64,000 nt of DNA. Origin: a virus. Below, in pieces: positions 16,852-49,602 of the stretch; position 1 is the stretch's first letter; each line of letters begins with the position of its first letter. The notes beneath the pieces are model-generated. The model did not search any database. It saw nothing but the letters and a program-made list of their open reading frames with translations, and was not told where the DNA came from. Position numbers and translations under genes: made by a program. The stretch lies in IMG/VR virus record IMGVR_UViG_3300030116_003110, positions 7,910-71,909 of that record. The stretch is one strand, 5' to 3'.

Positions 16852-17445
16852 TTGATGAAACGCAAGTCAGAAAATTATATTAACAACAAAGAATTCTCAC
16901 AGGCTGTGTTTTCATATGTGGAAGAATGTAATGAATGTAAAAAGAATGGTAAGGAAGTTCCTATTGTTCCTAACTATGTTGCATTAGGATTCCATCAGAT
17001 TGCAGAAGGTTTATCTCATAGACCAAACTTTATCTCTTACTCCTATAGAGATGAAATGGTTATGGATGCTGTAGAGAATTGTCTTAGAGCAATCCGTAAT
17101 TATAATATTGAGGCTGCCACTCGGACTGGTAACCCTAATGCTTTTGCGTATTTCACACAGATTGCCTACTATGCTTTTCTCAGACGTATCTCTAAAGAAA
17201 AGAAACAACAGGAAATCAAAGACTCATACTTTGAAAATACCTTTGCTGCTGATCTAATTGAAGCATCTTCTAATCAGGATGATACATCTAAGCATATCAC
17301 CCATGCTGCTATTGAGACAGCAAAAATGCGGATGAATGATAATAAAGAGTTGACAGACGACGAATACATTGATATAATTGAAGATACGTTACCAAAAAAA
17401 CGTGTTCGCAAAACAAATGATTCAGACCTAACGGATTTTATCTAA
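16852..17445 (+). CDS. gp55: Late-transcription sigma factor gp55
   Basis: YINNKEF, LSHRPNFISYSYRDEMVMDAVENC, NAFAYFTQIAYYAFLRRI. Confidence 0.96.
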   Translation: MMKRKSENYINNKEFSQAVFSYVEECNECKKNGKEVPIVPNYVALGFHQIAEGLSHRPNFISYSYRDEMVMDAVENCLRAIRNYNIEAATRTGNPNAFAYFTQIAYYAFLRRISKEKKQQEIKDSYFENTFAADLIEASSNQDDTSKHITHAAIETAKMRMNDNKELTDDEYIDIIEDTLPKKRVRKTNDSDLTDFI

Positions 17446-18983: not shown

Positions 18984-19058
18984 GCGGGTATAGTATAACG
19001 GCTATTACTACAGCCTTCCAAGCTGAGGATGTCGGTTCGATTCCGTCTACCCGCTCCA
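18984..19058 (+). tRNA. tRNA-Gly (anticodon TCC)
   Basis: GCGGGTA/TACCCGC acceptor stem, anticodon loop CTTCCAA, GGTTCGATTCC T-arm, encoded TCCA end. Confidence 0.95.
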
Positions 19059-24416: not shown

Positions 24417-24695
24417 ATGATGAAATACAGTGAAGATCGTATCCTGAAAGAAATGGAAGAGTATGTTGCTCAGACCTACAAGGGTCACTACTCTAAGCAA
24501 AAGTTCCAAGCTACTGAGTTTATCATTGACTCTGGCCACGGGATGGGTTTCTGTCTCGGAAACATTATGAAGTATGCACAACGTTATGGCAAAAAGAATG
24601 GTCGTAACCGTGATGACTTGATGAAAATCGCCCATTATGCTATGATGGCTCTACATGTACATGATCTAGATGAGGATGCATTTGATGTTGAATAA
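24417..24695 (+). CDS. DUF3310-like protein
   Basis: HY...GFCLGNIMKYAQRYGKKNG...DLMK pattern. Confidence 0.75.
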   Translation: MMKYSEDRILKEMEEYVAQTYKGHYSKQKFQATEFIIDSGHGMGFCLGNIMKYAQRYGKKNGRNRDDLMKIAHYAMMALHVHDLDEDAFDVE

Positions 24696-25347
24696 TACTA
24701 TGGAAGTTATTCGTAACTTCGGAACCATTAACCAGAACCTTGTGTTCCGCAAAGGGAATGTTCTGCGCACTATTGCAGATGCAAAGAACGTTCTTGCTAT
24801 GGCAACTCTTGATGAAGAGTTTCCGCAGGATTTTGGTATCTATGATGTGAATGAGTTTATTGGCGCATTCAATCTGATTGAAGACGGTGCTGTGCATTAT
24901 CAGGACAAGCACATGGTTATTGCTAATGGCAAGTCTTCTATTAATTATTTTTACTCTGATATTGAGATGTTGACTAATCCACCTGAAAAGGATTTGCAGG
25001 TTCCTGATCCTGAAGTCACATTCAATCTCACTCAAGATATTCTGAGTCAGCTGCGCAAAGCATCTTCTGCTCTTGGACATAAGAGCGTGATCATTGGCAG
25101 TACTGAAAATGACTCAGTAACCCTATCAATTGTTGATCCTAAAAACATGACTTCTAATGAGTATACCATTGAAGTTGATGGTGTGTGGCATGGTGATATC
25201 CAGTCTAATACACGCCTAAGTATCAACATTGATAACCTGAAACTTCTGCCCGGTGATTATACGGTAGAGGTTTCTTCTAAACTTATCAGTAAGTTTACTA
25301 ACGTTAGTAGGCAACTCCAATACTGGATTGCTTTGGAAAAGAATTAA
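24670..25347 (+). CDS. gp45: Sliding clamp gp45
   Basis: NFGTINQN, FGIYDVNEF, NLKLLPGDY, YWIALE; true start may be 24685. Confidence 0.93.
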   Translation: MRMHLMLNNTMEVIRNFGTINQNLVFRKGNVLRTIADAKNVLAMATLDEEFPQDFGIYDVNEFIGAFNLIEDGAVHYQDKHMVIANGKSSINYFYSDIEMLTNPPEKDLQVPDPEVTFNLTQDILSQLRKASSALGHKSVIIGSTENDSVTLSIVDPKNMTSNEYTIEVDGVWHGDIQSNTRLSINIDNLKLLPGDYTVEVSSKLISKFTNVSRQLQYWIALEKN

Positions 25348-40509: not shown

Positions 40510-42021
40510 ATGAAAATAGTTAGTGTTGGGTCTAGTGGTCATGATGCTAGTTATGCATTTTTTGATACTGACCTAAAAGACCCTATAGAATTTGCTTCTG
40601 CTACTGAAAGATATAACAGAGAAAAAAAGTCTAAACATTGGCCCAAACAGTGTACAACTGCAATTCTCAATAGAGACTATGATATTATGGTTTCAAATCA
40701 GAGTAAAATGTTTGCACTTAAGTATTGCCCCAATGAAATACTTAACGAGATTTCACATTGGATGGACCACCATGAAGCGCATGTTGCTAGTGCTTTTTAC
40801 ACTAGACCTTGGGAATCCTATGAAGATACTGTAATAATGGTGATTGATGGTCAAGATGGTCCGAGCGTTAATCAAGGTTATAGTAGATTAATTTCAAATA
40901 GTATTTGGAAATATGATGGTGAAAAGTTTATAAAAATTCATGAAGATTTTTCTGCACATGGCGGGGTATATAAACTAATATCTGGCACTTGGCTTGGACT
41001 TGGACATAATCAAGAGGGTACTGCTATGGCGTTGCATGCTCTTGGAGAATATAATGAATTATATGCTGAGATGTATGAACATCTCAGACAACATCATATC
41101 GCTAAAAGAAACGATGTTCTTAGAAATTCTGATAAAAGATTTGTTTTTGATAAAACAGGTTTGAAAACAATTGAAAAATATTTTCCTAAAAAAGCACTGA
41201 GAGCGAAACATAATTTAGATTTAATACTTTCAAAGACTGATCCCAATTGGCAAGCAAATCTTGCTCACACTATGCAAAAAATTATTATGGATCATATGGT
41301 AGAATATGCCACTCTTGCAAGAAAACATGGTTCTAAACTTTGCTTTGCTGGCGGTGTTGCTCAAAATATTATGGGTAATAGTTTAATTCGTAATATATTT
41401 GACGATATGCATATGCCTTCTGACCCTACAGACGGCGGATTGCCTCTAGGTGCGGGTCTGCATGAGTGGAGTAAGTGCACAGGAAAAAATAGAATTAATT
41501 TGGATAATGCATACCTTGGTTATGATATCAAGCAAAATGTTAATCCTAAGCAAGTAGTAGATTATATTTTAAAACACAAAGTTTGTGGTATAGCTAATGG
41601 TAAAGCTGAATGGGGACCAAGGGCATTAGGTAATCGTTCTCTTATTGGTGATGTTAGATATGATATTAAAGATACCGTTAACAAAATTAAAAGAAGACAA
41701 TATTATAGACCTTTTGGTCCGGTAATCTTGGAAGAAGAATTTGACAAATGGTTTGAAGGACATACTAATGGGTATATGCAGTATGTGTGCAAACCAAAAC
41801 ATGAACACAAATCTGTTATTCATATAGATGGAACTTCCAGAGTGCAAACTGTTACTTCTAACTCAAAGTCTGTGATTAGACCTATTTTAGAAGAATATTA
41901 TGAACGCACTGGTGTCCCAATGCTTTTAAACACTTCCCTAAATATCAAAGGACAACCAATGGTAAATGATGAAAATCATGCCAGAGACTTTGAAAAAGAA
42001 TATGGGGTTAAAGTTTTTTAA
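40510..42021 (+). CDS. Carbamoyltransferase (NodU/CmcH family)
   Basis: GHDAS, ERYNR, HHEAH, AGGVAQN, EWGPRALGNRS, RPFGP, DGTSRVQTV, LLNTSLN. Confidence 0.92.
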   Translation: MKIVSVGSSGHDASYAFFDTDLKDPIEFASATERYNREKKSKHWPKQCTTAILNRDYDIMVSNQSKMFALKYCPNEILNEISHWMDHHEAHVASAFYTRPWESYEDTVIMVIDGQDGPSVNQGYSRLISNSIWKYDGEKFIKIHEDFSAHGGVYKLISGTWLGLGHNQEGTAMALHALGEYNELYAEMYEHLRQHHIAKRNDVLRNSDKRFVFDKTGLKTIEKYFPKKALRAKHNLDLILSKTDPNWQANLAHTMQKIIMDHMVEYATLARKHGSKLCFAGGVAQNIMGNSLIRNIFDDMHMPSDPTDGGLPLGAGLHEWSKCTGKNRINLDNAYLGYDIKQNVNPKQVVDYILKHKVCGIANGKAEWGPRALGNRSLIGDVRYDIKDTVNKIKRRQYYRPFGPVILEEEFDKWFEGHTNGYMQYVCKPKHEHKSVIHIDGTSRVQTVTSNSKSVIRPILEEYYERTGVPMLLNTSLNIKGQPMVNDENHARDFEKEYGVKVF

Positions 42022-44335: not shown

Positions 44336-44464
44336 ATGAAAAACCTTCTCAAAAAACTAAACCAAGTTGACGAAACTACGCTCATGGCGTTTGTCGTCAT
44401 TTCTGCGCCTGCTTCTATGGTAGCCGCAGTTGCTATCATTACTATTCAACTTCTTCTCAAGTAA
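44336..44464 (+). CDS. 42-aa single-TM peptide absent from the ORF track
   Basis: AAGGAG RBS; MKNLLKKLNQVDETTLMAFVVISAPASMVAAVAIITIQLLLK. Confidence 0.6.
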   Translation: MKNLLKKLNQVDETTLMAFVVISAPASMVAAVAIITIQLLLK

Positions 44465-44474
44465 CGGAGAAACT

Positions 44475-44759
44475 ATGACTATCGCTAAAACCATCCTTGC
44501 ACAAATCAAAATCGCTGACCCTTGGGCTATGGGCGCATGGGGTGCTAAACAACTTGTCGCTAAAGAAGATGGTCTTCAGTTCAAGACTAGTGGTATGGTT
44601 AAGTGGAAAGGTATTGTTCAAGTCATCTATGATGCTGCCCTTGACCTTTACAACGTTGAATTCGGTCGGATTCGGAAGTATGAATACAAAGTTGACAAGA
44701 AGATTGAAGGCGTTTACGCTGATCAACTTGTAGAACTGATTGACGGCCAAGTGGGGTAA
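44475..44759 (+). CDS. Early hypothetical protein
   Basis: GGAG RBS; IAKTILAQI...DLYNVEF...GVYADQL pattern. Confidence 0.75.
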   Translation: MTIAKTILAQIKIADPWAMGAWGAKQLVAKEDGLQFKTSGMVKWKGIVQVIYDAALDLYNVEFGRIRKYEYKVDKKIEGVYADQLVELIDGQVG

Positions 44760-44763
44760 AAAT

Positions 44764-45000
44764 ATGTTTGAAGTAATCTATCGTTTTACCAACATCAACG
44801 AACAGTTTGAAGATGTTCGGTGTGATGTGTTTGACACCATTGAAGAAGCTCGGGAGTACATTCTAGAGCAGTTTGATGGTTTGATTGAAGGCACTACCGA
44901 TGATGAAACTGGTAAAACTATGGTTGAGGAAGAAGGTTGGTACGAAAACTTCATTCTTGACAAATATGAGATTCGTAAGATGGAGGTGACTCTCAACTAA
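44764..45000 (+). CDS. Small acidic hypothetical protein
   Basis: ORF with FDTIEEAREY motif. Confidence 0.65.
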   Translation: MFEVIYRFTNINEQFEDVRCDVFDTIEEAREYILEQFDGLIEGTTDDETGKTMVEEEGWYENFILDKYEIRKMEVTLN

Positions 45001-45008
45001 TATAAATA
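45001..45008 (+). promoter_or_regulatory. T4-type late promoter driving the tmRNA
   Basis: Exact TATAAATA. Confidence 0.8.
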
Positions 45009-45012
45009 ATCT

Positions 45013-45285
45013 TGTTCGTTGATGAAGCGAGCGGAACGTATGCAGGACCGGGGGGCAGTACCCCGCTGGTCCACCATAAGGGTATCAAGGTATCTTTGTG
45101 ATGGGCCAGAACTAGGATCGACTGGTGCGGGATGTGAGTGGAGACAAACCGATTGATACCGTAAGTATCAAATTAAAGTAAGAGCAAACAATTATGTAGC
45201 TCCTTCTCGTTACGCTCTCGCAGCGTAATCTGAGTTGGGTTCGTATCGGGGAACCTAGAAACAGAAGGGGGGCAATATGCCCCCT
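45013..45285 (+). ncRNA. ssrA: Circularly permuted (two-piece) tmRNA; tag ANNYVAPSRYALAA; ends approximate
   Basis: Acceptor piece with T-arm CGGGG-GGCAGTA-CCCCG and CTGGTCC-A-CCA (ends 45076) precedes coding piece GGGCCAG-AACTAGGATCGAC (45103); G3.U70 pair; tag frame 45184-45228. Confidence 0.93.
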
Positions 45286-45292
45286 ACTCGAT

Positions 45293-45781
45293 TCAATTTG
45301 CTAACGGATTATCCAATGCTTCTTGGATTTGAGCAGACAACCTATCATCAACCTCTTTGATCTTTCTGTCTGTCTCACCATACAACGCATCACGTTTTCT
45401 ATCAAATCGTTCATCCGCTGCATCTATCATATCTCTGACTTCAGTTTCAGTTTCTCGCATATCATCTTCTAGTCTATCAACTAATGTTTCAATACGAGTA
45501 ACATCATCTTTCAAATCATTTTTAATCTGTCTGGCATAGTCAGTTGCTTGGATAACAGAGTCTTCTGTGCTAACCATCTTCTGCTCTATGACAGATAGTT
45601 GTTCTTGGAATCCGCTGAGATCAGGTGCTACATATGATTGGATCATTTCTTTCATGTCCATGTAGTCTTTGTAAACTTCAAAGCCACCATACAAACCACC
45701 CACAAGGGTTGATAGACCCATAGCAACAGCTACCATTCTACCACCCTTGAACTTGATCCCAGCAAATTCTATTTCTGCCAT
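45293..45781 (-). CDS. N-terminal TM plus coiled-coil protein
   Basis: Hydrophobic segment near residues 16-35, then long heptad-like acidic region. Confidence 0.8.
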   Translation of the reverse strand: MAEIEFAGIKFKGGRMVAVAMGLSTLVGGLYGGFEVYKDYMDMKEMIQSYVAPDLSGFQEQLSVIEQKMVSTEDSVIQATDYARQIKNDLKDDVTRIETLVDRLEDDMRETETEVRDMIDAADERFDRKRDALYGETDRKIKEVDDRLSAQIQEALDNPLAN

Positions 45782-45782
45782 T

Positions 45783-46109
45783 TTACTTCTTCATTCCTTC
45801 AATACCTTCCTTCGCATAGAATGCCGCTACAATAGCAGCAACCGATACAAAGTAAGTTGGGGCAATATCTTTTAGCAGACCAGAAGCAGTCTCCTGACCT
45901 ATGAGAGAGGATACAATAATAGCAAAAGGATAGAGCAGCATACCAGCAAGAGCAAACCACGCCATGCCTCTTTGAGCATCCTGTTTTTTATCGTCGTTTT
46001 CAATTTGGAGCATTCGCTCCGCTTTAGCCATTTCTTCATCTGTTACAATACCGTCGCCGTCTTCATCAAATTGATTGTAGATGGAATCTTTTTGTAACGT
46101 CTTAGCCAA
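45783..46109 (-). CDS. EF-hand-like, two-TM membrane protein (holin-like topology)
   Basis: DEDGDGIVTDEE loop followed by two hydrophobic segments. Confidence 0.75.
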   Translation of the reverse strand: MAKTLQKDSIYNQFDEDGDGIVTDEEMAKAERMLQIENDDKKQDAQRGMAWFALAGMLLYPFAIIVSSLIGQETASGLLKDIAPTYFVSVAAIVAAFYAKEGIEGMKK

Positions 46110-46347
46110 TGGAACCTCCTAAGCCTTGCATTGCTGATGTTAATTGTGGTGCAAAAGAAGATGCAGCCCACAGCATAAGTGCAATAGCACCTACACCGAT
46201 AACTACCCACTTCATCTTCATATCATCTACACTCATTTTAATACCAATAAGTTCATTACTCAAAATGCGCAGAGATAATTCCATCTTACCTTCTGGCATA
46301 TCAATTGGAACTTGTGGTTCCTGATTTGGTTTTTGCTCTTCAGCCAT
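46102..46347 (-). CDS. Small single-TM protein
   Basis: WVVIGVGAIALMLWAA; coupled to both neighbours. Confidence 0.7.
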   Translation of the reverse strand: MAEEQKPNQEPQVPIDMPEGKMELSLRILSNELIGIKMSVDDMKMKWVVIGVGAIALMLWAASSFAPQLTSAMQGLGGSIG

Positions 46348-46805
46348 TATTTTATTCCTTCATCTAAAATATCTTCTAAAATAACAACACCCTTGTTAAC
46401 CAGTCTTTCTCTATTGGAAAGGTGCATTGCTTGAATATCATCTTTATTTTGACCATGATATGCAACTGCATGGCCTTCTTCAATCATAACTTCAGTCAGT
46501 AGTTTCTTGTCTGGACTTACATAGAAGTCACCAAGAATTCTACCAAACTTACCTTTCATATCTTCACCGTCTTTTGCTGCAAATGTTTTCAGAATTACAT
46601 TTGATTGTAATAATTCTTTAACCCTTTCTTTTGCTGCAAGACCGAATAACTTTTCAACCGGATCACGGGTTCTAGATTCTGGTGTATCAATGCCCATGAT
46701 ACGAACACGTTCATTTTTGAGCCAAACACCAAACCCTAGATCAATGTCAACATCAACTGTGTCTCCGTCAACTACTTTGATCAAGTTTGCTTTATACTCG
46801 TACAT
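46347..46805 (-). CDS. Thermonuclease (SNase family)
   Basis: VVDGDT, RVRIMGIDTPE, GKFGRILG, EGHA. Confidence 0.9.
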   Translation of the reverse strand: MYEYKANLIKVVDGDTVDVDIDLGFGVWLKNERVRIMGIDTPESRTRDPVEKLFGLAAKERVKELLQSNVILKTFAAKDGEDMKGKFGRILGDFYVSPDKKLLTEVMIEEGHAVAYHGQNKDDIQAMHLSNRERLVNKGVVILEDILDEGIK

Positions 46806-46815
46806 TTTTTTACTC

Positions 46816-47262
46816 CTATTGAGGATAGAACTGCAACTGTCTGAGTTGCTGTATTTCTTGTTCTAATCTCATTACTTCTAATTGTTTCTTTCTTAATTCT
46901 AATTCATATAATCTATTGCAATCAATTCTTGCTTTTGGTTTTTGACCTAGTGGAATTGTTATGCGAGCAAAAATGCCTACATCACCCACTCTTTGTTCAA
47001 CATATCCGGCTAGAGGATCAGTGTATCCCCGGCCGACAATTCCGGTCACTCCAAACTCTAGGTTTGTAGCAGAACCAATTGCATTTGAGCAATCTAGATC
47101 ACCAGCTCTGAACTTGTCTGATTGATAATTACCGGGAGCGGAAGGTAGAGACAAGTTTAATGAACTGGACTGTCCAAATGCAACTGTACTTGCAATCAAA
47201 ATAAAAAATAATGATAACAAAAACATTCTTATGAAATTATAATGTATCATACTTTTGAGCAT
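46816..47262 (-). CDS. Exported protein with amphipathic beta-strands and C-terminal coiled coil
   Basis: Signal-like hydrophobic N-terminus; two Cys; LEFGVTG and GIFARITIPLG strands. Confidence 0.75.
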   Translation of the reverse strand: MLKSMIHYNFIRMFLLSLFFILIASTVAFGQSSSLNLSLPSAPGNYQSDKFRAGDLDCSNAIGSATNLEFGVTGIVGRGYTDPLAGYVEQRVGDVGIFARITIPLGQKPKARIDCNRLYELELRKKQLEVMRLEQEIQQLRQLQFYPQ

Positions 47263-47621
47263 ATCCTACTGTTAATACCAGATGATAATTCATTATCAAC
47301 TAATAGTCTTGACGTGGTACAGATATATTCAATTCTGTCACAATCAACTTCTCTAATATAAATGTCAATTTGTTTCTGTTCCAAATACCCCACTTCAATT
47401 AATTGTTCTGAAGCAGCAAATGGTACAGGATTCCATTCTTCATCATAAACATCAATTGCATAGTATTCTACCTCTTTTCTCTTATTAAAGAGTTTCATTT
47501 TGGTCACCACAATTCCATCCATAAAAGATGGTTCAAACTTGGGATAGGTTGGTGTCCATTCATGAGCATGTGCGGTAGTGACCATAAAGGCCGCCACCAC
47601 CGCAGAGATAAAATATTTCAT
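47247..47621 (-). CDS. Exported beta-rich protein (possibly pilus-chaperone-like Ig fold)
   Basis: Signal peptide ending AHA; TP..KLFN..YAIDV pattern; C-terminal Cys pair; TAATG coupling. Confidence 0.6.
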   Translation of the reverse strand: MKYFISAVVAAFMVTTAHAHEWTPTYPKFEPSFMDGIVVTKMKLFNKRKEVEYYAIDVYDEEWNPVPFAASEQLIEVGYLEQKQIDIYIREVDCDRIEYICTTSRLLVDNELSSGINSRICSKV

Positions 47622-48118
47622 TAATTGGCAATGCACTCTGCTGTAATATTAGCAGTGTAGTCACCGCCGGGGAAAGATTTGTCATAACCATAGGTCACAC
47701 TGGATTCTACCTTGAACCAAGTAGAACCTGCAACCGTAAGATCAAATTCAGTAACATTGTCGTATTCTACTTTTGCAGCTTCATAACCAGACATACCAGC
47801 ATCTGATGTAGAAGATACAGATACTTCTCCGTCCCAATTCAAAGCATCACTTAAGGATGGAGATGTAGCAAATTCATTTGGCCAACTAATTTTAGCAGTA
47901 TAGTAGTCTGCAACTGTAACATCATATCTTACCACCGGATCAACACCACCCTTGATTGGGTCGGTATCTAATTCATCAGGGGCTGGGTTTCCATATACAC
48001 CAGCAACGTCTGTGTAGATAGTACACTTAGAGGAAACGTTACCAGTAATGGGAATGTTTTCTGCAAAAGCAGGTGCTGCTACAGCAAAGGCAACAGCGGC
48101 TGAGATAACTCTTAACAT
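47621..48118 (-). CDS. Exported beta-rich protein (possibly fimbrial/pilin-like)
   Basis: Signal peptide ending AFA; ITGNVSSKC N-terminus; FPGGDYTANITAEC C-terminal strand. Confidence 0.65.
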   Translation of the reverse strand: MLRVISAAVAFAVAAPAFAENIPITGNVSSKCTIYTDVAGVYGNPAPDELDTDPIKGGVDPVVRYDVTVADYYTAKISWPNEFATSPSLSDALNWDGEVSVSSTSDAGMSGYEAAKVEYDNVTEFDLTVAGSTWFKVESSVTYGYDKSFPGGDYTANITAECIAN

Positions 48119-48129
48119 TTAATTCTCCG

Positions 48130-49041
48130 TTATTGGTCTCTATCATATTGAGAGCGTACCATAGAATAATGTGTAGCATCTGATGCTAGTTGTCTCAACG
48201 CCCTGTTATTATCAGGTAATGTTGTGTCTTCTAATTGTAGAGTATCTGTCAGTTCTAAAACGTCTTGATATTCTACTTCATAGTATGGTTCAATCGTAGG
48301 TTGACTTGCCAGTTGGATTAGAATGCTGTCTTGTAGAGCAACATCAATTAAACCACCAACGTTTGGATCAACCATAAAACTTTTTTCTAAATTTTCTTCT
48401 TCTTCAAATTCTTCATTTTCATTTTCAGCCTGTTCTTCTTCAACTTCAGTTTGTTGCTCAAGTTGAAACTGTACCCATTCATCATAATATGGATCATCTA
48501 CTGAAACATCTTCAAGAGAAGCTAAGTATTTATACAAAGCATCCAAATATCCGGGGCATGTTGGGTCCGATAATGGTGTAGTACATATAATCTGTTCTTC
48601 ACCAATATCCATTTTATACAAGTAAATAACAGAAGCGTCACTTACTGTTCCATTACCTTCAATGGTAATACTACCATCGCCCCAATTGACTGCATCACTT
48701 TCTGTGAATCTGAAATATTTTTTGATAGAGTTTCCGGGTAAACCGGACCAATCATCTACTTCCTCAAAAATATAGCCACCATTTGTCGCATCTTCATTAC
48801 GCACATAAACCTGAACATCTTCAGCAGGGTCTTTAGACATGACATAATAATATGTTAACCCATTGATCTGCAACGATACATGTGGTGCAGAGTGGTCGGG
48901 TAAAACATCACCCATTGTCCATGCTAGAGCATTTGCGGCAGCGTTGTTAGTTACGCCGTAAACACTATCCGCCCAAGAGAATGGCGAGCAGACCAAGGAC
49001 AACAGCACCGCCAATGATGGTAGTGCGAGTTTCTGGATCAA
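48130..49041 (-). CDS. Exported protein with CxxPLSDPTCPGY motif and acidic linker
   Basis: Hydrophobic N-terminus, beta-rich domain, Glu-rich stretch. Confidence 0.75.
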   Translation of the reverse strand: MIQKLALPSLAVLLSLVCSPFSWADSVYGVTNNAAANALAWTMGDVLPDHSAPHVSLQINGLTYYYVMSKDPAEDVQVYVRNEDATNGGYIFEEVDDWSGLPGNSIKKYFRFTESDAVNWGDGSITIEGNGTVSDASVIYLYKMDIGEEQIICTTPLSDPTCPGYLDALYKYLASLEDVSVDDPYYDEWVQFQLEQQTEVEEEQAENENEEFEEEENLEKSFMVDPNVGGLIDVALQDSILIQLASQPTIEPYYEVEYQDVLELTDTLQLEDTTLPDNNRALRQLASDATHYSMVRSQYDRDQ

Positions 49042-49564
49042 TGTTCATTCCTCTACTACTTTGTGGAGAGTCTGGACGCTTATATTCGTTTTCAGGGTCT
49101 TCCCATGCAGACTTAGCTTCTTCACCAATTGTACCATCAATGGGGCAAGGTGTCCCTGCATCCATCATAGCTTGGAAGACTCTTGGGTCTTGACACATAA
49201 CTGATACTGCGGCTACTTTCATGCCCATATCGTATAGTAGACTTGCATTCTTGAGTTTTTCGCAATTCATGTCTCTTACTGTAGAACCAGCGGAGATACC
49301 AAGAATTTGCGTTTGCACTGCACCTGATACACCAACTGTGCATAAGTCGGATGTTGAATTATTGATGCTTGGAGAAATTGCAGATGGTGGTGGAGATATT
49401 ACCGTTGTAGTTGAATCACTAGTAGAAGTTACTGTGCTAGTGGTTGTATTTTCTGTTACAATCGGATCAACATCAGAAGTTGTAGTTGTAGTTGTTTCAT
49501 CTTGCGCATATGCTGCTGTAGCCAAAAACAACATTACAAAAGCAGCAAACATTTTTTTAATCAT
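48965..49564 (-). CDS. Exported, C-terminally anchored Cys-containing protein
   Basis: Signal peptide ending AYA, Thr-rich linker, PPPSAISP, four Cys, C-terminal TM. Confidence 0.8.
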   Translation of the reverse strand: MIKKMFAAFVMLFLATAAYAQDETTTTTTSDVDPIVTENTTTSTVTSTSDSTTTVISPPPSAISPSINNSTSDLCTVGVSGAVQTQILGISAGSTVRDMNCEKLKNASLLYDMGMKVAAVSVMCQDPRVFQAMMDAGTPCPIDGTIGEEAKSAWEDPENEYKRPDSPQSSRGMNIDPETRTTIIGGAVVLGLLAILLGG

Positions 49565-49594: not shown

Positions 49595-49602
49595 TATTTA
49601 TA
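49595..49602 (-). promoter_or_regulatory. T4-type late promoter for the minus-strand operon
   Basis: tatttata is the reverse complement of TATAAATA, 30 nt before the first ATG. Confidence 0.85.

Follow-up and report, generated by a model that had tools for sequence, protein, structure and literature searches.

We report a complete, circularly permuted tmRNA gene of the alphaproteobacterial type in the genome of an uncultured, T4-like marine myophage, on the plus strand at 45014-45285 of the window, that is, of the whole 64,000-nt stretch of DNA analysed (bases 7910-71909 of a 71,909-base IMG/VR record, about 40% complete). tmRNA is the RNA that frees stalled ribosomes. Judged from the sequence, we consider it likely, at a probability of about 80%, that the phage carries here a working ssrA gene belonging to the two-piece, alphaproteobacterial type. 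Taken at the curated gathering thresholds of Rfam, the model RF04321 (tmRNA_permuted) matches 45014-45228 over its full length with 99.5 bits (cut-off 47, E 3.7e-18), and RF01849 (alpha_tmRNA), also over the full model length, matches 44972-45276 with 67.2 bits (cut-off 50). An earlier note on this DNA had read a permuted, alpha-type tmRNA here and had named Infernal with the Rfam alpha_tmRNA model and ARAGORN as checks. Both Rfam models bear the reading out, and ARAGORN does so in part: it makes no call for the window gene at default settings, and once the score threshold is lowered to 90% (-ps90) its output is a tmRNA labelled 'Permuted', whose tag agrees (ANNYVAPSRYALAA) and which bears the remark 'Tag not identified'. 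A permissive Rfam scan of 44700-45700 (E up to 1) retrieved neither a glutamine riboswitch nor any further family, and a blastn search with the gene in 50,697 phage records, including that of the OM43 phage Melnitz, gave nothing at E 1e-3.

Anatomy of the Gene

The acceptor piece (45014-45076) lies ahead of the coding piece, which begins at 45103 and whose 5' end spans 45103-45149 in the Rfam alignment. The order of the two halves is as the earlier note had it, and each of the sequence elements it named within 45001-45285 was recovered at its position, as was the alanine determinant G3.U70 (G45105.U45070). The acceptor piece comprises the P2 3' strands (45014-45045 in the Rfam alignment), the T-arm (45049-45065, with the T-loop GGCAGUA at 45054-45060) and the acceptor 3' strand CUGGUCC (45066-45072), followed by an encoded ACCA (45073-45076). 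The coding piece opens with the acceptor 5' strand GGGCCAG (45103-45109, G3 being 45105), which pairs with CUGGUCC at 7/7 positions, the third pair being G.U; it continues with the D-loop-like AACUAGGAUCGA (45110-45121), the GGAUCGAC element (45115-45122) and the P2 5' strands (45122-45149, Rfam alignment). When folded for minimum free energy, the coding piece shows a hairpin, UUGAUAC-CGUAA-GUAUCAA (45152-45170), upstream of the resume codon and in the region expected for pseudoknot PK1. The tag frame starts with GCA at 45184 and runs for 14 codons to a TAA at 45226-45228 (frame 45184-45228); beyond it stand a post-tag hairpin seen on folding, GGGUUC/GAACCU (45237-45256), and a conserved CCUAGAAACAGAA box (45254-45264) that is nearly invariant in an alignment of 39 copies. 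All these features are on the plus strand. The 3' end of the gene is a GC-rich 8-bp hairpin (45267-45285; -15.4 kcal/mol, z -3.2). An extra GC hairpin of this kind, placed after the AACAGAA box and ahead of the 3' tail, is peculiar to a small subfamily with the tag start ANNYVAPS (the window and the loci L035, L063 and L083); its fourth pair is G-C in L035, G.U in L063 and A-U in L083.

Between the two pieces lies an intervening segment of 26 nt (45077-45102, plus strand) that is devoid of ORFs and folds into a hairpin, again in line with what had been claimed: alone it reaches -4.9 kcal/mol (z -2.9), with 2 of 200 shuffles equally stable, and together with four flanking bases on each side -9.8 kcal/mol, matched by 3 of 200 shuffles. 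We propose that this spacer would be removed on maturation. The two outer P2 helices of the window copy include three non-standard pairs. Neither the tRNA-like fold nor P2 emerged when the two pieces were co-folded by energy, and 28 of 200 shuffled partners equalled the true one; we regard this approach as uninformative here.

Relatives and Structural Selection

Searching IMG/VR for an alpha-type T-arm followed by CCACCA yielded at least 120 loci, and the comparisons below cover 122 copies, namely the 120 IMG/VR matches listed, Melnitz (L123) and the window. Among the matches listed, a perfect 5' acceptor complement was found in 111 of the 121 copies other than the window's, and all 111 carry G3.U70, across 17 different stem sequences; a tag frame is present in 107 of the 121. 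ARAGORN at default settings detects 71 of the 122 copies among these matches and misses 51, the window's included, and -ps90 raises the number detected to 89 of 122. Thus, published frequencies of phage tmRNA that derive from ARAGORN are probably underestimates; RF04321, by comparison, does call the window copy.

Pairing was counted in a MAFFT alignment of 39 viral copies with spacers of at most 60 nt (44 copies qualified, and five near-duplicates were left out). The T-arm is paired in 100% of cases, with 3 of its 5 pairs covarying; the acceptor stem in 99.3%, with 4 of 7 pairs covarying and the G.U kept in 39/39; and the inner P2 helix in 87%, with 5 of 6 pairs covarying. The outer P2 helices are paired at 42-52%, and these helices together with the post-tag hairpin at 42-55%, figures that come from a poorly aligned region. 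The covariation score of the whole structure is 0.389 against 0.145 in shuffles, none of 500 reaching 0.389, and sliding the helix partners gives at most 0.133. We read these counts as selection on structure.

The spacers of the relatives range from 4 to 277 nt (median 77.5, n=112, among the matches listed). In several of them a short ORF equipped with a ribosome-binding site starts 12-22 nt past the CCA (L016, L017, L066 and L104; L050 and L084; L071 and L078; L055 and L067); the window spacer is too short for one. A spacer peptide of 43-47 aa is common to four loci at 78-84% identity, and another of 62 aa to L050 and L084, where 25 of 63 codons are identical, 15 differ synonymously and 23 non-synonymously. 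None of these peptides has a PHROG match. In Melnitz the spacer starts with GGAG and an ATG (L123:1586, about 46098 of MZ577097.1), and the ORF, unannotated in the record, runs into the tRNA-like domain.

The Tag Peptide

The window tag reads ANNYVAPSRYALAA*, starting ANNYVAP where the alpha consensus of Rfam has ANDNYAP. It had been called atypical, and the departure from the ANDN consensus stands; the label is nevertheless overstated, given that among the matches listed 49 of the 89 tags reported by ARAGORN -ps90 start ANDN and the other 40 otherwise. On present sequences, the window tag is one variant among many viral ones rather than an oddity. At the C-terminus, LAA closes 67 of those 89 tags, and ALAA 73 of the 107 tags parsed among the matches listed. 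The start ANNYVAPS was reported for the window and L063 and, by frame parsing, also for L035 and L083 (among the matches listed). Over the first eight tag codons, the window and L063 differ by five synonymous and no non-synonymous changes, and because all of these differences are synonymous we consider the tag to be under selection at the peptide level. Contigs from RNA libraries show two differences in the tag frame, a T>C at 45192 (runs X16 and X17) and a G>A at 45225 (all four runs), each of them synonymous and in the third codon position. Synonymous-only change argues for real translation of these phage tags, which is the key unproven point of phage tmRNA function.

This pattern bears directly on whether the RNA might be a decoy, titrating host SmpB or alanyl-tRNA synthetase, or competing with the host tmRNA, and so blocking trans-translation in the manner of the RNA of mycobacteriophage DS6A. 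A DS6A-like RNA made of the tRNA-like domain only is reported to inhibit tmRNA in E. coli (PMC4131195; PMC11915505, both as far as their available sections go), and the phage record has no SmpB of its own, both of which speak for this reading; yet a decoy would have no need of a post-tag hairpin and a conserved box, both of which are retained, nor of a full tag frame whose five differences from L063 are synonymous against none non-synonymous and which varies synonymously in RNA libraries as well. In view of this conservation of the tag at the peptide level, we hold a decoy role to be very unlikely. A different use of a working tmRNA was put forward by the authors of the Melnitz study (PMC9004378, in the sections available): selective tagging and destruction, of host proteins or truncated products, with release of amino acids for virions. 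The retention of the ALAA degron in 73 of the 107 tags parsed among the matches listed agrees with it; however, the ribosomes served by tmRNA are those that have stalled at the end of a message, no selectivity for host proteins is seen here, and under a late promoter the messages being translated would be mostly those of the phage. This use thus seems improbable, and ribosome recycling by a working tmRNA is the benefit we favor.

Promoter and Timing of Expression

A T4-type late promoter motif, the TATAAATA box (45001-45008, plus strand), starts right after the TAA stop of the ORF at 44740-45000, and the RF04321 match begins at 45014, 6 nt past the box. No TTGACA-like -35 element is found 16-18 nt upstream of it. 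We counted 13 instances of the motif in the window where 4.69 were expected, a number that none of 100 shuffles attained; some lie a short way ahead of structural genes, namely those for the sheath (3850), the portal (6275) and a tube-like protein (12264), and others ahead of several further ORFs. T4-type late promoters are read by gp55, and gp45 is the activator of late transcription; the window encodes a gp55-like late sigma (16852-17445, plus strand; phrog_234, E 9.1e-48) and a gp45-like sliding clamp (24670-25347, plus strand; phrog_223, E 8.4e-64). The late promoter that the earlier note had placed upstream of the gene is accordingly backed by an enriched motif, by the lack of a -35 and by both proteins. 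Between the 45001 box and the convergent genes there is no plus-strand ORF of at least 50 aa, and therefore the box serves the RNA gene. Farther upstream, a sigma-70-like promoter at 44273-44301 matches 11 of 12 positions, and no terminator-like site was detected on the plus strand from there to the gene; early read-through is thus possible. Late expression would nonetheless be the best reading of the window promoter.

Across the 122 viral copies (among the matches listed), 56 have TATAAATA at 40-60 nt ahead of the T-arm, where the frequency of the motif elsewhere in the same loci would predict 0.39. When the copies are aligned on the box, most carry TTGACA 16-18 nt upstream, often with a TG before the box. 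By class, again among the matches listed, 48 of the 122 copies combine a TTGACA-like -35 (N16-18) with TATAAATA, 16/122 have a sigma-70-like promoter with another -10, seven (the window, L007, L055, L069, L071, L105 and L108) have TATAAATA without a -35, 49/122 have neither promoter type, and two are too short to be classed. In 45 of the 64 copies that possess a -35 (among the matches listed), TATAAATA itself, unchanged, forms the -10 octamer. The arrangement TTGACA-N16-18-TATAAATA would fit both the host sigma-70 and the phage late sigma. In a small sample of complete or near-complete records, gp55 is encoded in 2/2 of those with a TATAAATA tmRNA and in 0/3 of those without. The parts of the literature on phage tmRNA covered here contained no description of this dual TTGACA/TATAAATA arrangement. 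It is tempting to speculate, although we think it rather unlikely, that the promoters of two-piece tmRNA genes in many aquatic phages are deliberately dual, being read by sigma-70 early and by gp55 late, and that a minority including the window has lost the early half and become late only. If so, dual-promoter phages would have a supply of tmRNA throughout infection. If the window gene is indeed late only, its RNA would replace decaying host tmRNA during the synthesis of virion proteins, and the ANNYVAPS start would reflect an adaptation to one specific host and its proteolysis adaptor. The comparison offers a testable idea of when phages make tmRNA, and it places the emphasis differently from the authors of the Melnitz study, who read an 'early promoter'.

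Cover in RNA Libraries

Four metatranscriptome runs from four ocean studies were compared as assembled contigs. All four (4/4) have contig cover on 44961-45317, and three have patches of cover in 45420-45830; 44400-44960 is uncovered in all four, uncovered parts not being readable as absence. In the run X15 the pieces are 97-100% identical to the window at a word depth of 35-81: one of 70 nt has no differences, one of 88 nt has two, and one of 133 nt has four plus one gap. Part of the cover in the RNA libraries stems from the conserved parts of relatives. Some contigs bridge the spacer and some cross the 3' processing site, and the contig ends at 45077 and 45079 are not readable as RNA ends; the contigs, showing no RNA ends and in some cases bridging the spacer, may therefore represent precursor RNA or DNA. 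Overall, the cover fits an abundant, stable RNA, with carry-over of DNA being possible.

Phage Setting and Missing Partners

The gene is phage-borne, as had been proposed: PHROG matches identify the contig as that of a T4-like marine myophage with structural genes (terminase, sheath, tube, portal, prohead protease, scaffold and major head protein) and replication genes (UvsY, a UvsW-like helicase, a gp46/47-like nuclease, clamp, clamp loader and RegA), DNA polymerase, primase, UvsX and gp41 being encoded as well. Among the replication genes, two genes past the primase, lies a Nol-like carbamoyltransferase (40510-42021, plus strand; phrog_1601, E 2.5e-76), and a tRNA-Gly with the anticodon TCC is found at 18984-19058 (plus strand; Rfam, 58.2 bits). 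The closest gp41 is that of Phage C48C1 (65% identity), followed by those of cyanomyophages (61-64%), a placement that names no host. Downstream of the tmRNA gene, nine ORFs, mostly without a family match, form a minus-strand block (45293-49564) inside an otherwise plus-strand stretch; the block includes one endonuclease (46347-46805), is headed by a TATAAATA box of its own (49595-49602, minus strand) and ends at the 3' hairpin of the tmRNA gene. Read on the minus strand, a T-rich run comes right after this hairpin, a terminator-like arrangement that closes the convergent block.

SmpB (PF01668), noted earlier as missing from the window, was not found in the whole 71,909-base record (about 40% complete) either, nor in five further phage records that bear a tmRNA, of which three reach a completeness of at least 93%; function would therefore depend on the SmpB of the host. 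The record likewise gave no match to SspB (PF04386) or to an integrase (PF00589). The earlier note's ideas that the RNA may counter host defences and that the altered tag start may change the use of the SspB adaptor are neither backed nor contradicted by these results. Among 185,579 species genomes of bacteria and archaea, neither the acceptor/T-arm sequence nor the D-loop/P2 sequence of the window has a match (0 in both searches). Fourteen DNA runs of marine or seawater metagenomes, from six studies, contain half or more of the 1.5 kb that surrounds the gene; two of these runs may be the contig's own source. An assembly chimera was rejected on the recurrence of the gene region in these 14 runs, and the junctions are accordingly not an accident of assembly. 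A relic of an att site is unlikely in a T4-like phage that has no integrase, with a dedicated promoter ahead of the gene.

The gene could also be a drifting passenger or a landmark for recombination that was acquired from a temperate phage or a host and has since lost its use. Its patchy distribution speaks for this: Phage C48C1, the closest isolate by gp41 (65%), is without a permuted tmRNA, and only 17 of 47 Melnitz-like contigs carry one (PMC9004378, available sections). A useless passenger is, however, hard to reconcile with structure and tag conserved in at least 111 viral copies amid abundant compensatory change, with a dedicated promoter kept at a fixed distance, or with a gene covered in RNA libraries; moreover, neither extra copies of the 3' end of the gene nor local repeats occur in the window. 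The chance of such decay we rate as very small, and a working tmRNA remains the favored interpretation.

A Proposed Model of Ribosome Rescue

For a working tmRNA, we suggest the following course. One precursor would be transcribed from a few bases past TATAAATA by host RNA polymerase with gp55, with some read-through from upstream early genes also possible. Host tRNA-processing enzymes would then remove the 26-nt hairpin spacer, leaving an acceptor piece of about 60 nt and a coding piece of about 180 nt that would stay paired via the acceptor stem and P2. The host alanyl-tRNA synthetase would charge the RNA through G3.U70, and together with host SmpB it could enter stalled ribosomes, free them and add ANNYVAPSRYALAA, the ALAA end of which would target the product for proteolysis. 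The likely benefit would be the recycling of ribosomes during late protein synthesis of the phage, when host RNA synthesis has failed.

Comparison with Known Systems

Two-piece, alpha-type tmRNAs of phages are already published, for Melnitz and for pelagimyophages (PMC9004378). According to the available sections of that paper, tmRNA genes occur in 402 of 18,146 phage genomes, and among 133 unique phage tmRNAs ARAGORN suggests 53 to be two-piece, 50 of these 53 coming from marine or aquatic phages; within Melnitz-like contigs, 17 of 47 have the permuted form. Its supplementary listing of phage tmRNAs may already include relatives of the window contig. A tmRNA database of 2025 counts 79 unique phage tmRNAs (PMC11915505, available sections), and earlier work, as far as its available sections go, knew only one-piece phage tmRNAs (PMC4131195). 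The window gene thus adds one member to a published class, which makes it a correct annotation and not a discovery; what is added are the promoter comparison, the peptide-level selection on the tag and the copies missed by ARAGORN at default settings. Within the parts of the tmRNA literature covered, we found no experimental account of processing, charging or tagging by a phage two-piece tmRNA.

The tmRNAs of the Bxz1 group of mycobacteriophages and of Bacillus phage G resemble the present one in being phage-encoded, with no phage SmpB reported in the available sections of PMC4131195; they are, however, one-piece and belong to phages of Gram-positive hosts, whereas the window tmRNA is permuted (PMC4131195). 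Alphaproteobacterial tmRNA (RF01849) offers a further comparison: a review states that the Caulobacter-type two-piece tmRNA works in trans-translation (PMC3985003, available sections), and the window gene has in common with the alphaproteobacterial RNA an acceptor piece placed first, the same T-loop, G3.U70, an encoded CCA, the GGAUCGAC element, a tag frame ending LAA and an AACAGAA box after the tag. Unlike its bacterial counterparts, the window copy resides on a lytic-type phage that has no SmpB, has a tag that starts ANNY and not ANDN, is preceded by a late-type phage promoter box and bears the extra GC hairpin common only to L035, L063 and L083; none of the bacterial species representatives has its acceptor/T-arm or D-loop/P2 sequence.

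A close parallel is the Methylophilales phage Melnitz, whose tmRNA feature is placed at 45984-46436 of MZ577097.1. Both are marine, T4-like (Kyanoviridae-like) myophages with a permuted gene, the alpha-type T-loop GGCAGUA, a 14-residue tag ending YALAA (ANDNYVPVDYALAA in Melnitz), TATAAATA about 50 nt before the T-arm and records without SmpB. Yet Melnitz carries TTGACA 17 nt before TATAAATA, a promoter that its authors called early (PMC9004378, available sections), whereas the window is without a -35. The spacer measures 142 nt in Melnitz against 26 nt in the window, and a glutamine riboswitch is found at the 3' end in Melnitz, where the window shows none at E up to 1. The setting differs as well: ssrA lies beside a late-transcription coactivator gene in Melnitz, and abuts the convergent gene block in the window.
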